DNA of 64,000 nt, taken from positions 6,043-70,042 of the forward strand of contig CAZJNI010000002.1 of the NCBI GenBank assembly GCA_964547465.1. The letters run 5' to 3'. Positions 38,893 to 61,813 of this stretch are shown piece after piece. Below the pieces are notes generated by a model. It searched no databases. It saw only the letters and a list, made by a program, of their open reading frames with translations, and was not told where the DNA came from. This DNA is from an uncultured Gammaproteobacteria bacterium (GTDB taxonomy: Bacteria; Patescibacteriota; Microgenomatia; Daviesbacterales; UBA10151). Every line of letters begins with the position of its first letter. Positions within the stretch are counted from its first letter, which is position 1. The position numbers and the translations under genes are program-made.

Positions 38893-38964
38893 TGCGGTGG
38901 TAGTTCAGCAGCAGAATGTCTCCTTCCCAAGGAGAAGGTCGGGGGTGCAAATCCCCTCCACCGC
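38893..38964 (+). tRNA. tRNA-Gly (anticodon CCC)
   Basis: Manual fold: acceptor GCGGTGG/CCACCGC, anticodon stem TCTCC/GGAGA with loop TTCCCAA, T-arm GGGGG-TGCAAAT-CCCCT. Confidence 0.75.
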
Positions 38965-38976
38965 TCAGCGAGATCA

Positions 38977-40524
38977 ATGCCTAAGTTTTCTTGGCTCATT
39001 CTAATTTTCTTTTTGGCTTACTTTCTGCTGGGTCTTTTTATCTTTAGAGATTACGGATCTTATTGGGATGAACCAAGGGATAGACTTACAGGTATAGTTG
39101 CCTTAAAATTTGTGCTATTTAAAGACCCGGAGCTATTTTCTTACAGGGACCGCTACTATGGAACTGCTTTTCAGCTGCCGTTGGTTGCTTTGGAAAAATG
39201 GTTGAGAATTGATAGTCCTCCTGAAATTTATTTTTTAAGACACTTTTCCACCTTTTTATTATTTTTTATAGCGGTTTTTATTTTTTACCTGCTTTGTAAA
39301 GACTATTTCAAAAACTTTTGGATTGGGGTTTTGGGTGCAACTTTTTTGATTTTAAGTCCCAGAATTTTTGCTGATAGTTTTTATAATTCAAAGGATCTAG
39401 TGTTGCTTTCTGCTTTTATCATTAGCTCTTATACAATGTATCGCTTTATCAAAAGTCCCAATATCCTTTGGTCCACCCTTCATGCAGCAGCCTGTGCCTT
39501 TGCTGTTGACGTCAGATTAGTAGGATTACTTATCCCGGGATTTACGGCTCTGTTTATATTATTTGATGTTATAGTCTCACCTGCTTTTGGTGGTTTCTTA
39601 AAAACAAAAGTAATTCCTCTTGGTATCTTCATTCTATTTTTTTGGCTATTTGTCATTCTTTTCTGGCCCTTTCTCTGGAGAAATTCCCTTACAAACTTTA
39701 TTGACGCTATCGGTTTTATGAGTAAGTTTGAAGCTTATGGAGGAACAGTTTTGTACCTTGGTCAATTTATAAAGGCAAATCAAGTTCCCTGGCATTACAT
39801 TCCTGTCTGGATCTTTTTTACTACCCCGTTGCTTTATACATTGCTATTTCTTGTGGGGATGCTGAAAACACTTATAAGACTTAGGTACCATTTGAGAGCC
39901 ACTTACCGTAAAGAAAAGATCCTCCTGCTATCACTTCTTTGGCTACTAATTCCCTGGGTTTTAGTTATTAACTCTCATAATGAGCTCTATGACGGCTGGA
40001 GACATTTTTATTTTATCTATCCGGCCTTTTTATTAATAGCTCTTTATGGTTTTTACGCTATCTGGGAATTATTTAAAAATGTAAAATTTGCAAAGGTTGC
40101 GGCCGTTATAGTTATTTTGGGTAATTTTGCCTGGGTTGGGCGCTTCATGGTTATTAATCATCCTTATCAATATCTTTATTTTAATGAGGCTATTGGGGGA
40201 ATGGAAAATGCCAAAAAGAATTTTGATCTTGATTATTGGGGTTTAACTTTTAAAAAGGGGTTAGAATTTATAGCACAAGAGGATCAGGGTAGCGCCATAC
40301 CTTATATGCTTGAATTTGGATCAGCAGGGAATGTACAAATTTTACCAAAAAAGGATTGGGAACGCTTTGTATTCATTTATGATTTCCAAAAGATGGATCA
40401 AGCTAAATATATCTTAAGCAATTATCGTTGGCATCCGCAGGATTATCAAGGTCAGAACGAGATTTATAGCCTTAAGATAGATAAGACTAAAGTTATGAGT
40501 GTATTTAAGGCTCCATTTAAATAA
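38977..40524 (+). CDS. GT-C family membrane glycosyltransferase, ArnT/PMT (GT39/GT83)-like
   Basis: N-terminal FRDYGSYWDEPRDRLTGIV is like the ArnT/PMT DE motif region. About 12 TM helices. 515 aa. Confidence 0.5.
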   Translation: MPKFSWLILIFFLAYFLLGLFIFRDYGSYWDEPRDRLTGIVALKFVLFKDPELFSYRDRYYGTAFQLPLVALEKWLRIDSPPEIYFLRHFSTFLLFFIAVFIFYLLCKDYFKNFWIGVLGATFLILSPRIFADSFYNSKDLVLLSAFIISSYTMYRFIKSPNILWSTLHAAACAFAVDVRLVGLLIPGFTALFILFDVIVSPAFGGFLKTKVIPLGIFILFFWLFVILFWPFLWRNSLTNFIDAIGFMSKFEAYGGTVLYLGQFIKANQVPWHYIPVWIFFTTPLLYTLLFLVGMLKTLIRLRYHLRATYRKEKILLLSLLWLLIPWVLVINSHNELYDGWRHFYFIYPAFLLIALYGFYAIWELFKNVKFAKVAAVIVILGNFAWVGRFMVINHPYQYLYFNEAIGGMENAKKNFDLDYWGLTFKKGLEFIAQEDQGSAIPYMLEFGSAGNVQILPKKDWERFVFIYDFQKMDQAKYILSNYRWHPQDYQGQNEIYSLKIDKTKVMSVFKAPFK

Positions 40525-40591
40525 ATTACCCAAATTTCTACATATCTACTTAATTTCTTGTATAATTTTATCTGTGCCATGGAGATTGTAG

Positions 40592-40663
40592 GCCGACTTG
40601 GCTCAATGGTAGAGCAGCTGTTTCGTAAACAGCAGGTCACTGGTTCGATTCCAGTAGTCGGCT
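40592..40663 (+). tRNA. tRNA-Thr (anticodon CGT)
   Basis: Manual fold: acceptor GCCGACT/AGTCGGC, D-arm GCTC-AATGGTA-GAGC, anticodon stem GCTGT/ACAGC with loop TTCGTAA, T-arm ACTGG-TTCGATT-CCAGT. Confidence 0.85.
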
Positions 40664-40679
40664 CAAAAATACCGTATCG

Positions 40680-42497
40680 TTATTTACTCGCCTCAATTAG
40701 GCCTTGTCTGGCAAATTGATTTTGAGGATCCAAAGATAGAACTTGATTAAAAATTTGTTTTGCTTTTTCTTTATCACTTTTAGCCAGATAAACTATCCCT
40801 AAATTATTTACTAAATTTAAATTTTTAGGATTAACCATAATGGCTTTTTGAATATATTGCAGTGCTAAATCATATTGTTTTTGGTCAAAATATAAAGCGG
40901 CTATATTTTGAAAGGACTGCCAGAGGTTTGGATTTATTTTGGCTGCCATTTGGTAACTTTCCATTGCCTTGTCCATTTGACCCATTTCCCTGTAGGTATT
41001 TCCCAGGTTATGATAAGCATCAGCATAGTTTGGTTTTAGCTCAATTGCCCTGCTAAATTCCCTCAAAGCTCCTTCCTTATCGCCGCGTCGTCCGTACACA
41101 TCCCCTAAATTATTGTGTGTATTAGGAGAAGAAGGGGAGGTTTTGCCTGTTGCTATCCAGAGATTATCTTCGTTTTGCCAGTCTATCCCTCTAAAAAAGG
41201 TTCTGACAGACAAGGCCAGAATTATTAAAACAAAAATAATATAAAGTGTATTAGTAAACTTTTTCCTAAGTAAAATTAACTTGTCCAATCCTAAAGCCAG
41301 AAGAGTGAAAATACCTATACTCGGTAAATAAATATACCTTTCTGCTACTATCCAGTTTAACCTGAATGGGGTGAGAGTTGGGGATAGAGCAATTATAAAA
41401 AAGGATAACCAGAAGAAAGTAGATTTATCTTTTTTGAATCCAACAAGAATAAGTCCAAAAAATGCCAGAGTTAATAAAGCTCTCATGGCAAATGAAAAAT
41501 TACCAAAAGCAAGTTCAGAATGATAAAGGGTTAAAATTTTGGGGAAAAATATTAATTCTGCATAAGATGAGATAGCAATTGGAATTTGAATTAAGGGATT
41601 ATCTACACCTTTTTCCTGATAATGGACAGTCTGCAAAGTTGTTTCTCTTTCAGGTAAAGCAGCAAGGTTCACAAAAACATAAACAAGAGCAAGTATTAAA
41701 AAGGGGATAAATTTAAACCAGTTCTTCTTAAGGCTTCTAAAGCAAAAATCATACAAAGGATAGATTACAAAAAGCGCTGCAGGCATCACAGGGTGCGACA
41801 TTAAAGATAGAAGATAGAAGATAGAAGATAGAATATAGAAAAGCTTTTTTTCTGAAGATAAAATATAAAACAGAAATGATAAAAGGAAAAAGAAGCTATA
41901 TTGTGCATACATGCCTCCGGAAATCCAAAGCACAGCTTCTGCGATAGCCGGATGCACTGCAAACAAGGCGGAGGCAAAAAGAGCAATTCTTTTTGATTTG
42001 TATATTAGAAAAATAATAAAGTAGACAAGATAAGAAGACAAAAGATGGAAAATTAAATTAGTAAGCCTGAACGTAAAAGGATTAACTCCTCCAATGTGTA
42101 CAGATGCCCAATAAATAAAATGTCTGATTGGCCCAAAGGGATATTGCAATATGCGGGAAAAGTCTGCTATTTCAGGTTTTTGAGCAATTTCTGCAATATC
42201 ATCAGATATAAAGGCATTATTTAGAAAATATGTATAAGTAAAAATTACCAGTAGGCTTAAGATTAAAAGGTTGATCCAGTGATTTTTAATCCAGGATTTT
42301 TTATCAATATGATTTGGAGGGGTGCGATTATTTTTGTGTCTTTTTAAGAAAATATTCAATTTTTCCTTACCCCATTTTTTGCCTAAATAACTTAAAATTT
42401 CTTCTCTGGGGAGCGTTAAATTACCGGCAATTTCCTCTATAGTTTGCTCCTTGAGGTGTTTTTTTAGATAACTTTTTTGACTATGGGTAAGTTGCAT
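40680..42497 (-). CDS. Membrane protein with a PMT/ArnT-like multi-TM N-domain fused to C-terminal TPR repeats (TMTC-like architecture)
   Basis: C-terminal TPRs (NLGDVYGRRGDKEGALREF..AIELKPNYADAYHNLGNTYREMGQMDKA..). More than 10 TM helices. Confidence 0.6.
   Translation of the reverse strand: MQLTHSQKSYLKKHLKEQTIEEIAGNLTLPREEILSYLGKKWGKEKLNIFLKRHKNNRTPPNHIDKKSWIKNHWINLLILSLLVIFTYTYFLNNAFISDDIAEIAQKPEIADFSRILQYPFGPIRHFIYWASVHIGGVNPFTFRLTNLIFHLLSSYLVYFIIFLIYKSKRIALFASALFAVHPAIAEAVLWISGGMYAQYSFFFLLSFLFYILSSEKKLFYILSSIFYLLSLMSHPVMPAALFVIYPLYDFCFRSLKKNWFKFIPFLILALVYVFVNLAALPERETTLQTVHYQEKGVDNPLIQIPIAISSYAELIFFPKILTLYHSELAFGNFSFAMRALLTLAFFGLILVGFKKDKSTFFWLSFFIIALSPTLTPFRLNWIVAERYIYLPSIGIFTLLALGLDKLILLRKKFTNTLYIIFVLIILALSVRTFFRGIDWQNEDNLWIATGKTSPSSPNTHNNLGDVYGRRGDKEGALREFSRAIELKPNYADAYHNLGNTYREMGQMDKAMESYQMAAKINPNLWQSFQNIAALYFDQKQYDLALQYIQKAIMVNPKNLNLVNNLGIVYLAKSDKEKAKQIFNQVLSLDPQNQFARQGLIEASK
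41806..41840. repeat. Tandem heptanucleotide repeat (GATAGAA x4 plus TATAGAA) inside the TPR-membrane protein coding sequence
   Basis: Seen directly in sequence. The unit length is not a multiple of 3. Confidence 0.85.
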
Positions 42498-42546
42498 GCA
42501 TTATAGATATTAAATCTTTCTTTTTTGGATGAAAAGAGTGGAAAAG

Positions 42547-43212
42547 TTATCTGGGTATAGTTAGAACCTGGCCGGGTTCAATAAGATCAGGATTTGCAAT
42601 ATTATTTGCTTTGGCAATCCGATCATAGGCGTAAATATTACCATAAGCTCTGCCTGCAATCTTTGATAGCCAGTCACCTTCGACTACGGTGTAGGTATTA
42701 GATGTAATTTCAGGACCCCAACTCTGTTGCATCATAGTGACATCCGGAGCCCCTTTTGATCCGGGTGCAGCATTAGATGGTTCCTCTATTGCAGGAGCTT
42801 CAGATAAGACTGGTACCTCTTCTATTTTTGGTATTTCCAAAACCTGACCTACCTCAATCTGATCAGGATTTGAGATATTGTTAGCTTTGGCAATTTCTGT
42901 GAATTTATATCCGTCTTTGTAATATTTTTCAGCGACAGTAAATAAGGTGTCATCTTCTTTAACAGTATATTTTCCGGGTAAATTTTCAGGGGAAACATCT
43001 TCTTCCATTTGGGTTTGTTGGGCCGGACCTAAATCTGCACTATTTTTGTTAAAGTAATTAAAAACTAAAATCCCCACAACTAAAACAATCAAAGCACCTA
43101 AAATCATGCTCAACCTTGATTGATTAGACTCAACTTGACCTTCCAGTTTTTCAACATAACTTTCATAAACTGGAGTTGCCCCATTTTTTTTATTTGAAGT
43201 TTTTCTTGCCAT
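42547..43212 (-). CDS. LysM-domain protein (two LysM repeats, N-terminal TM anchor)
   Basis: Two copies of the YTV.E.D.L..IA...Y.....IA.AN.I.NPD.I..GQVL.IP LysM pattern. Confidence 0.8.
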   Translation of the reverse strand: MARKTSNKKNGATPVYESYVEKLEGQVESNQSRLSMILGALIVLVVGILVFNYFNKNSADLGPAQQTQMEEDVSPENLPGKYTVKEDDTLFTVAEKYYKDGYKFTEIAKANNISNPDQIEVGQVLEIPKIEEVPVLSEAPAIEEPSNAAPGSKGAPDVTMMQQSWGPEITSNTYTVVEGDWLSKIAGRAYGNIYAYDRIAKANNIANPDLIEPGQVLTIPR

Positions 43213-43330
43213 TTTTTTTGGAGCAGTTTAGTTTAAGGAGCAGAATTACAAAGCATTTTTATCCTATAAACGAAAGTTTGTCAAGGGGCAATTATGTAAA
43301 CTAATTGCCTCAAGGGGGCAAATCTGCGGG

Positions 43331-43355
43331 CCACGTTCATGTAAACTGAACGTGG
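43331..43355 (-). terminator. Hairpin CCACGTTCA-tgtaaac-TGAACGTGG directly abutting and including the encoded CCA of tRNA-Asp (no U tract)
   Basis: Perfect 9-bp inverted repeat seen directly. Core ACGTTCA..TGAACGT is shared with the 27567 and 56724 elements. Confidence 0.35.
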
Positions 43356-43428
43356 CGGGGCCGACGGGAATCGAACCCGCTATCTTCTCCGTGACAGGGA
43401 GACGTGATGACCGGTTCACTACGGCCCC
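43353..43428 (-). tRNA. tRNA-Asp (anticodon GTC), CCA encoded
   Basis: Manual fold of the reverse complement: acceptor GGGGCCG/CGGCCCC, D-arm GTGA-ACCGGTCA-TCAC, anticodon stem TCTCC/GGAGA with loop CTGTCAC, T-arm GCGGG-TTCGATT-CCCGT, then GCCA. Confidence 0.85.
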
Positions 43429-43449: not shown

Positions 43450-45216
43450 ATGGAGTATTCTAATCAACGTCTGGCTAAGATGCTTAGGAGTGTGGCTGCT
43501 GCCTACACTATCAAGAAAATTGGTAATATTTTTCAAATCAGGGCTTATGAAAATGCAGCTGATTCTATAGAGAATTCAACAGTTGAAGTTTCGGATCTGT
43601 GGCAGGAAGGTAAGCTGGATCAGGTTCCTGGTGTGGGGGAAAGCCTTAAAGGATATTTGGATGAGCTTTTTAAAACAGGTCAGGTTAAACATTTTGAAGC
43701 AGTAAAAAAAGGTATACCTGATGTGGTTTTTGACCTGTTGGATGTTTCCGGTGTTGGACCCAAGACTGCTCAAAACTTAGCAAATTTGGGGGTTTCCAGC
43801 CTGGATGAGTTAAAAAGATGGATAAAGAGTGGAGAATTGGTACGAAAAGGTTTTTCTTCCAAGCTGGCCCAAAATATCATGGGTGGTTTGCATGAGTTGA
43901 ATCAGCGGGATAACAGGATGCTTTTGCCTTATGCTGCAGTCCAGGCTGAAAAGATTTTGGATTACCTTAAAAAATCAAAGGATGTTTTGGATGCTCACCC
44001 GCTAGGATCACTCCGTAGAATGGTAGCAACAGTTGGAGATTTAGATTTTTCCGCTTCCTCAAAAAATCCCAAAGTTGTGGTTGATTATTTTTGTAAAATG
44101 CCTGCTATTGCCAGAATTTTAGATCAGGGTATAAACAAGGCTACAATTGTACTTAAAAGCGGTGTTCAGGCAGATTTATTAGTTGGTGAGCCTGATTCTT
44201 ACGGAGCCCTTCTACAGCATTTTACAGGCTCTAAAGCCCACAATATTAAGTTAAGGACACTGGCAATTGGGAAAGGGTACTCTTTATCAGAACATGGAGT
44301 TAGACGAACTGAAGGTGGAAGATTGAAGGTGGAAGATGGAAAGCTCATAAAAACAGAAACAGAGGAGGAGTTTTATAAATTATTGGGTATGGATGTGCCT
44401 GCTCCGGAGTTAAGAGAAGATACTGGGGAGATTGAGGCCTCATTAGAGCATAAACTACCCCGGCTGGTAAGTTCAGATGATATTAAGGGAGATCTTCATC
44501 TTCATTCCAATTTCCCAATCGAGAAGCCATCACATGCTCCTGGAGTTGATTCCATCGAAGAAATCATTAGAAAAGCAATGAAGTTAGGCTATATGTATGT
44601 GGGCATCTCAGACCATTCTCCCAGTTTTAATTTAAGTAAGGATAAAATAGTAGCAACAATTGAAAAGAGGACAAAATTTATTCAACAATTAAAACAGAGG
44701 ACAAAAAGTATTCGAGTACTAAATGGACTCGAAATAGATATATTACCCAATGGAGCATTGAGTATTCCAGATGAGGCTTTGGAAACTTTAGATTATTGTA
44801 TTGCCGGCATTCACTCCGGGCACAGAGGCGAGAAAGATGTAATTACTAAAAGATTAATCTCTGCCTTAAATTCTCCTCATGTTGATATTATTTCTCATCC
44901 AACTAATCGATTATTAAATGAAAGAGATTCATCTGATGCAGATTGGGAAGAGATTTTTAAACTGGCAGCCAAAAATGGAAAGATTTTGGAAATTAATGCA
45001 TACCCAAACAGGTTGGATTTAAGGGATGATCTGGTAAGAATGGCCAAAAATTATGGGGTGAAATTTATTATCAACACAGATGCTCATCGAATAGAACAAA
45101 TGGATAATATGAAATTTGGGGTGGCTGTTGCCAGGCGTGGCTGGGCTGAAAAAAAAGATATTGTAAATAGCTGGAACTGGACAGATTTTGCAAAATGGTT
45201 TAAGATACAACTATGA
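43450..45216 (+). CDS. polX: DNA polymerase X family protein with C-terminal PHP phosphoesterase domain (PolX)
   Basis: N-terminal Pol-beta-like HhH/NT domain ([10 protein letters not shown]). PHP motifs LHLHSNFP and GISDHS. 588 aa. Confidence 0.8.
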
Positions 45217-61063: not shown

Positions 61064-61813
61064 TCACCCCAGGGGTGTCCAAATTACAGGGGTGTCCAAA
61101 TTAAATAGTAGGGTATATTCTCCTTTGGGTCTGCCAGCTGGCAGATTTAGGGTTTCCAGCCAGTTACTAATAGTTTTCTTTTCCACACTTTGGTGAATTT
61201 TAGTTAATTCTTTTGCCAAAACTACTTCTATATCCCCAAAAACTTCTTTCATATTTTCCAGGGTTCTGAAAAGTTTATGTGGTGAAACAAACATTATATA
61301 TGTAGCTTTCATATTTTCATTATCTTCGCGGTCGCGAATAATTTGAAATAATTTTAATCTGTGGCCTGGTTTTTCCGGAGGATAACCTAGAAAGAAAAAT
61401 TTATCAGGTGGAAGACCGGAAAGTGTGAGGGCTGTAATAACAGAAGATGGGCCAGGAAGAGAGTCTACCTCAATCCCCTGGTGGATACACTCTCTGACTA
61501 ATTTATATCCAGGATCAGAGATAAGTGGAGTACCAGCATCAGAAACTAGAGCCAGGTTTTCACCAGACTTAAGTCTTTCTATAATTGCTGGAAAAGATTT
61601 AAATTCGTTGTAGTCATTTAGCACGATGAGCTGTTTATTAATTGGATTCCCGCCTTCGCGGGAATGACGGGAGAAAATTTTGTAATGATTTAAAAGGAGA
61701 GATGTCCTTCTGGTATCTTCACAAATTATTCCGTCCACGTTTTTTAAAACTTCAAGCGCTCTTAAGGTAATATCCCCTAAATTACCAATTGGGGTTGCAA
61801 TAATGTATAGCAT
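61064..61813 (-). CDS. rsmI: 16S rRNA (cytidine1402-2'-O)-methyltransferase RsmI
   Basis: MLYIIATPIGNLGDITLRALEVLKNVDGIICEDTRRT is the tetrapyrrole-methylase-like RsmI N-terminus. Confidence 0.8.
   Translation of the reverse strand: MLYIIATPIGNLGDITLRALEVLKNVDGIICEDTRRTSLLLNHYKIFSRHSREGGNPINKQLIVLNDYNEFKSFPAIIERLKSGENLALVSDAGTPLISDPGYKLVRECIHQGIEVDSLPGPSSVITALTLSGLPPDKFFFLGYPPEKPGHRLKLFQIIRDREDNENMKATYIMFVSPHKLFRTLENMKEVFGDIEVVLAKELTKIHQSVEKKTISNWLETLNLPAGRPKGEYTLLFNLDTPVIWTPLG

Follow-up and report, generated by a model that had tools for sequence, protein, structure and literature searches.

Whether a short heptanucleotide repeat lying inside a membrane glycosyltransferase-like gene of a Daviesbacteria genome serves as an ON/OFF switch, operated by slipped-strand frameshifting, or is kept for some other reason, is the question raised by this locus. 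An earlier note on the same DNA had likened it to the classic phase-variable genes of bacterial surfaces. To our knowledge, ON/OFF switching by frameshift-prone repeats has been described almost exclusively in cultured pathogens that are adapted to a host. In the accessible parts of the literature which joins phase variation and the Candidate Phyla Radiation (CPR), no repeat-based switch in a CPR bacterium is reported, and the repeat described there is an in-frame one of 9 nt (PMC6851277). Below, the whole 64-kb stretch of DNA that was analysed is referred to as the window.

The repeat and its host gene

Four GATAGAA units followed by TATAGAA occupy positions 41806–41840 of the plus strand, and Tandem Repeats Finder delimits the repeat at 41804–41840, with a period of 7, 5.3 copies and 96% matches; both agree with the description of the repeat in the earlier note. 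Read on the minus strand, the tract at 41804–41840 is TTCTATA (TTCTATC)x4 TT, that is, five units of which the first is imperfect, together with a 2-nt continuation. Its perfect part comprises 23 consecutive period-7 matches, whereas in 300 Markov-1 simulations of the window, scored at periods of 4, 5, 7 and 8, the longest run did not exceed 14. No further tandem copies of the TTCTATC heptamer occur elsewhere in the 64-kb window. Tandem repeats of other kinds were recorded by the same program in the gene of a PolX-type polymerase (43450–45216), which holds a 29-nt unit in 2.6 copies and a 7/14-nt repeat (44639–44713 and 44310–44341, respectively), and at 61070–61103, where a 17-nt sequence is perfectly repeated twice.

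The gene that carries the heptamer repeat extends over 40680–42497 on the minus strand, including the stop codon, and encodes a protein of 605 aa. The tract corresponds to nucleotides 658–694 of this ORF, beginning in phase 0, and spans codons 220–231, encoding FYILSSIFYLLS, and the first two bases of codon 232. Structure prediction yields a multi-pass membrane domain with a GT-C fold (aa ~66–450; 41148–42302, minus strand), and the C-terminal part of the protein (aa ~455–605; 40683–41135, minus strand) is a TPR domain. Nearly the whole of a predicted transmembrane helix (aa 218–231; 41805–41846, minus strand; local pLDDT ~88–92) is encoded by the repeat, and in the predicted structure this helix pairs with another, aa 197–213, via the short loop EKK. 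A Ser98-Asp99-Asp100 motif, located after the first transmembrane helix (42198–42206, minus strand) and falling in invariant columns of 30 aligned homologues, is a candidate for the acidic catalytic loop of a GT-C enzyme.

A GT-C fold is also found in the PMT and TMTC-type protein O-mannosyltransferases, the latter with C-terminal TPRs, but the sequence similarity of the window protein to these enzymes falls below the Pfam thresholds. No match to PMT_2, PMT or DUF1736 above the gathering score was obtained for the window protein, two of four homologues reached 24–25 bits for PMT_2, short of its cut-off of 26.1, and the NCBIfam models matched by the protein were exclusively those for TPRs. Since ALG12, STT3, PglB and ArnT score nearly as well, only the fold class is established, and the product is best regarded as a probable glycosyltransferase with a GT-C-fold membrane domain and TPRs. 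The placing of the repeat by the earlier note, within the membrane region of a minus-strand glycosyltransferase-like/TPR protein of 605 aa, is upheld at this level, with the PMT likeness remaining sub-threshold.

The repeat-bearing gene is conserved and syntenic and is not accessory. A gene for a LysM-domain protein lies directly upstream on the same strand (42547–43212, minus strand), and this neighbour is kept in orthologous loci. On its other side, the gene adjoins a second GT-C-like gene (38977–40524, plus strand; PMT_2 20 bits, sub-threshold), and, in the region 38894–43428, both GT-C-like genes are bracketed by genes for tRNA-Gly (38894), tRNA-Thr (40592) and tRNA-Asp (43353). A helical, cytoplasmic extension at the N-terminus (aa 1–58; 42324–42497, minus strand, in the window) distinguishes the long forms of the protein from the short forms of about 538 aa, which lack it. 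The extension has a faint helix-turn-helix-like similarity only (UPF0122/YlxM, E 0.004, one homologue), and the annotation YlxM-like has been given to one JGI fragment. Two occurrences of the peptide FYILSS are present in the window protein, at aa 210–215 and 220–225 (region aa 210–225, 41830–41869), and in some homologues (P0010, P0019, P0073, P0062 and P0117) the loop immediately preceding the repeat helix contains an in-frame duplication, of either 12 or 8 residues.

Nucleotide conservation among orthologues

In an alignment of 30 proteins, the peptide encoded by (TTCTATC)n, FYLLSSIFYLLS, was present at the same place in several homologues that are not the closest to the window protein, and the closest homologues are without it. 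A comparison of repeat presence in orthologues, as suggested in the earlier note, was then made on DNA from 22 distinct lineages. This DNA was obtained by exact-protein look-ups, by a metagenome scan anchored on two units and the conserved downstream ATG-TCN-CAY-CC, which is blind to the reading frame, and from three relevant matches of a genome scan with (TTCTATC)x3. The latter scan retrieved mostly unrelated taxa and, among the matches listed, those in this gene are L051, L056 and L060.

A perfect (TTCTATC)x5 occurs at the same codons in eight lineages (P0012, P0043, P0074, P0102, P0085, P0038, P0067 and L056), the proteins of which share 59–77% identity with one another. Five lineages, namely the window, L051, L131, L132 and P0110, match at 34 of the 35 bases, and the tract is progressively decayed in the remainder. 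Judged from this distribution, the tract is ancient and not a local accident.

Conservation of the tract greatly exceeds that of its surroundings. At positions where two orthologues agree in amino acid, their codons are identical at a rate of 0.89 within codons 220–231, compared with 0.48 in the rest of the gene; all the top-ranked 12-codon windows overlap the tract, and the best value elsewhere is 0.68. The boundaries are sharp, with synonymous sites scrambled in codons 205–219 and 234–245, including those of the invariant Ser234-His235-Pro236. A recent recombination tract was ruled out as the source of the conservation because, in all lineages, it stops exactly at the boundaries of the repeat, and codon preference was ruled out because the tract uses minor codons (TTC 14%, CTA 9% and ATC 13%). 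Given the peptide and the codon usage of the window, the probability of the exact codons is about 1e-8 per lineage. The repeat is conserved at the nucleotide level far beyond the need of the protein.

The phylogenetic distribution carries a similar message. In a neighbour-joining tree of 120 homologues, the perfect motif occurs in dispersed lineages, which often stand beside sisters that retain only 2–5 of the 12 residues. When 141 full-length homologues were compared with the peptide encoded by the repeat, the distribution of identities was bimodal, peaking at 4–6 and at 9–12 residues, and eleven of the peptides are exact. Because helix identity is bimodal and sister lineages have diverged, the protein constraint on the helix must be weak and is not the sole holder of the sequence. 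In a subset of lineages the tract is kept intact by something that acts on the nucleotide repeat itself, and the helix diverges fast once the repeat is lost. Tracts with at least two variants all have a variant in the central unit 3, and three of the five single-variant tracts are altered in unit 1, a pattern which fits an initial interruption stabilising the microsatellite, followed by decay.

Copy number and reading frame

A 7-nt unit is not a multiple of three and, consequently, one unit gained or lost truncates the protein. The frameshift foreseen in the earlier note was reproduced by simulation: with one or two units fewer or more, the protein terminates at aa 229, 236, 244 or 251, and changes of three units in either direction preserve the reading frame. 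The stop codon met after loss of one unit, or gain of two, is the TAA at 41801–41803, which forms part of a TAATG sequence (41799–41803, minus strand) with the ATG of Met233 (41799–41801), and an alternative-frame ORF of 61 aa ends at 41801. The ATG is located 4 nt past the tract, and the methionine is conserved in at least 90% of homologues. If translation re-initiated at this codon, OFF alleles could yield an enzyme in two parts.

In 20 of the 22 lineages with DNA, the tract is exactly 35 nt long and in frame. The frame-blind DNA searches yielded 15 loci, among the matches listed, and all 15 have five units in frame (ON). For the species represented by P0012, six of six contigs have five units; they derive from at least five different samples and include one amino-acid variant strain. 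Among the homologues in which this region could be placed, about 110 of the first 120 and 141 of 160 full-length ones, no in-frame allele differed by three units in either direction. The indels present among these proteins are confined to the loop before the helix and, in the 108 of the first 120 with recognisable flanking anchor motifs, none of them is a step of 7 aa.

A profile search with the N-terminal segment alone brought up short proteins, two of which come from genes split at the repeat. One of these two, P0127 at locus L144 (ENA ERZ27276474, contig k141_5543367), derives from a single short contig without coverage information; the tract reads TTCTATT (TTCTATC)x3 and then TTTCATG, and is exactly 7 nt short. 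Beyond the repeat, the frame that enters from upstream closes after a further 12 codons, and a second ORF opens at the conserved ATG (1258–1264), which the gene caller takes as its start. When one unit is re-inserted, a frame of 379 aa is open to the end of the contig with no other lesion. The ON ancestor would have carried one imperfect and four perfect units, the same architecture as the tract of the window. For the species of L144 no ON counterpart was recovered, the nearest relative being 77% identical. The second example, P0129 at L145 (Logan SRR22388059, 315–1915), is 10 nt short at the tract and split into three ORFs, with one in-frame stop in a later membrane helix, and it looks like either a recent pseudogene or a low-quality assembly.

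Several well-studied systems provide a measure for these observations. In the opa genes of Neisseria, CTCTT pentamer repeats in the region coding for the signal peptide cause translational phase variation. They resemble the present tract in having a non-triplet unit, in being translated within a hydrophobic segment and in that slippage shifts the frame to OFF. However, opa copy number varies widely from strain to strain and from cell to cell, since a leader peptide of any in-frame length is tolerated, whereas the Daviesbacteria tract has been seen ON only at five units; moreover, the opa products are adhesins of a pathogen and the Daviesbacteria tract encodes an internal helix of a conserved fold in a CPR enzyme.

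Heptanucleotide repeats of Haemophilus influenzae are located in the hmw1A/hmw2A promoters, and there is an intragenic (AATTTTG)14 (PMC2651432). The likeness lies in the 7-nt unit and, for the intragenic example, in the link to frameshifting, but proven heptanucleotide phase-variable tracts have 13–38 copies (PMC2651432), in variable number, compared with a fixed five in Daviesbacteria. Phase-variable glycosyltransferase genes of H. influenzae and Campylobacter contain tetranucleotide or poly-G tracts at lipooligosaccharide or capsule loci (PMC2651432, PMC6321876), G9 accounting for 53% and G10 for 26% of the Campylobacter tracts (PMC6321876). There too, the repeat lies in the 5' portion of a glycosyltransferase ORF and is conserved across strains, but the tracts are long or highly mutable, OFF is common in genomes, and the enzymes are soluble and not GT-C membrane proteins. 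With regard to length, the PhasomeIt cut-off for longer repeat units is at least five units (PMC6321876), and a permissive survey of H. influenzae accepted at least three (PMC2651432). The window, with four perfect units and one imperfect, passes the lower threshold and lies at or below the higher one, and the perfect orthologues have exactly five. The Daviesbacteria tract differs from the known switches in its fixed low copy number, its location in an internal GT-C helix, its retention across deeply diverged species and the rarity of OFF.

The heptamer itself is widespread. Tracts of (TTCTATC)n with 3–29 copies are present in at least 120 unrelated bacterial genomes (L005–L124 among the matches listed), examples being L032 3204–3256, L072 2463–2538, L016 4593–4617 and L067 5979–6006. 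Many of them lie within a long ORF at a distance of 15–35 codons from the preceding stop, which places them in a hydrophobic segment at the N-terminus, and they resemble classical signal-peptide repeats; their copy number is variable, unlike that in the Daviesbacteria gene.

The likening to a classic phase-variable locus stands, then, in part. The non-triplet unit within an ORF, the retention at the nucleotide level and the allele of L144 that lacks one unit all speak for it, and the fixed copy number and the conserved, syntenic gene speak against it. Uniform copy number across strains, named in the earlier note as what would tell against such a switch, is largely what the lineages and contigs considered above show. 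Because copy number is uniform, the unit count low and the gene conserved and syntenic, this is not a "classic" hypervariable contingency locus but, at best, a low-rate switch held ON.

Explanations for the retention of the tract

The explanation that we favour, to which we attach a probability of roughly 0.4, is that the slippage-prone tract is retained by selection and constitutes an ON/OFF switch of low rate that mostly stands ON. The tract would be an ancient coding microsatellite, prone to slippage, whose sequence at the same time encodes the transmembrane helix aa 218–231 of a GT-C/TPR glycosyltransferase. As this helix belongs to a conserved fold, no count other than five units would preserve both its length and the reading frame. 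If slipped-strand mispairing removed or added a unit, the protein would end prematurely at aa 229–251 (OFF), and recovery of the five units would bring it back (ON). The many lineages of Daviesbacteria in which 35–37 nt are kept letter-perfect, though the encoded helix is otherwise free to vary, would owe this to selection for keeping a mutable tract, and the contingency switch would operate at a low rate, with almost every population in the ON state. We infer slippage as the mechanism of mutation, together with reversibility and adaptive value, while retention of the repeat by selection, beyond the needs of the protein, is indicated by the sequence comparisons. In favour of the switch, L145 is frameshifted at the same tract as L144. 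Against it, the identity of the unit in every lineage is left unexplained by second-order selection for mutability alone.

The chief rival, possible if rather doubtful, is that the tract is a mutational hotspot without adaptive value, an old coding microsatellite homogenised by occasional copying from unit to unit. Such copying might occur by slippage followed by restoration, or by misaligned repair, with selection on the helix purging alleles that do not have five units and with off-frame alleles being deleterious or pseudogenising. The constancy of five units in 20 of 22 lineages accords with this, as do the conserved and syntenic nature of the gene and the second lesion of L145, which resembles that of a decaying pseudogene. 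A hint of unit copying is provided by L125 and L143, in which units 2 and 3 share a double variant at unit positions 2–3. Nevertheless, the shared variants are weak evidence (estimated p ~0.1), several of them being synonymous and towards preferred codons, and we rejected them as proof of copying. Neutral homogenisation should also let the unit drift between lineages, and yet all keep TTCTATC; the one candidate for takeover by a variant unit, P0105, with a peptide such as (TTTTATC)5 would encode, carries point variants only at the DNA level. Finally, the cost of frameshifts would be expected to select for interrupted tracts, but in eight deep lineages the tract is still perfect.

A different kind of explanation, and an unlikely one, is that the 35–37 nt form a cis-acting nucleic-acid element in which purifying selection acts on every base, wherever a partner factor is kept, and slippage is incidental. 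The element might be a platform for binding of a protein or RNA, a translational pause, or a signal for recoding or membrane insertion. It alone would cover a unit that stays identical, a copy number that stays fixed, sharp boundaries, constraint that is equal at synonymous and non-synonymous positions, the minor codons and the bimodal loss across the tree. However, such an element has no known precedent or partner and no second copy of the tract exists in the window, and the preference for edge variants in nearly perfect tracts is not predicted by it. Neither an RNA structure nor a known RNA family was found: no Rfam family was matched, folding of the mRNA is predicted to leave the tract unpaired, and the stability of the region does not exceed that of shuffled sequence (z −0.42). 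In the unlikely event that a cis element is present, the invariant ATG 4 nt downstream would allow re-initiation on loss of frame, and the element would be a new kind of conserved tandem heptamer inside a membrane-protein gene.

Ordinary constraint on protein or codons, with selection preserving either the helix FYLLSSIFYLLS as such or rare codons clustered so as to retard translation while the protein enters the membrane, is very improbable. The exact peptide is kept with synonymous changes in P0083 (three) and P0110 (one), five of the 12 codons are rare, and tyrosine and serine recur with a 7-residue period on one face of the helix. Set against this, the 2–6 identities of 12 in the helices of sister lineages imply that great variation is tolerated, the common codons TAT, TCT and CTT are kept as strictly as the rare ones, and non-synonymous changes are as frequent as synonymous ones in the single-variant tracts (3 versus 2); the synonymous constraint above that of other conserved peptides, considered earlier, points in the same direction. 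As to a chance event, or a recent lineage-specific duplication without significance, for which the low copy number and nothing more can be adduced, both are refuted by the run of period-7 matches in excess of any simulated and by the many divergent orthologues that carry the same tract.

In a probable cell-envelope glycosyltransferase of Daviesbacteria, a frameshift-prone repeat is found letter for letter across orthologues in which the synonymous sites are otherwise scrambled, and one contig, L144, is one unit short. Should the switch, as favoured here, prove true, ultra-small and probably symbiotic bacteria would use stochastic surface variation. Should it not, the strict nucleotide conservation of a coding microsatellite of fixed length would be a constraint that itself needs explanation.
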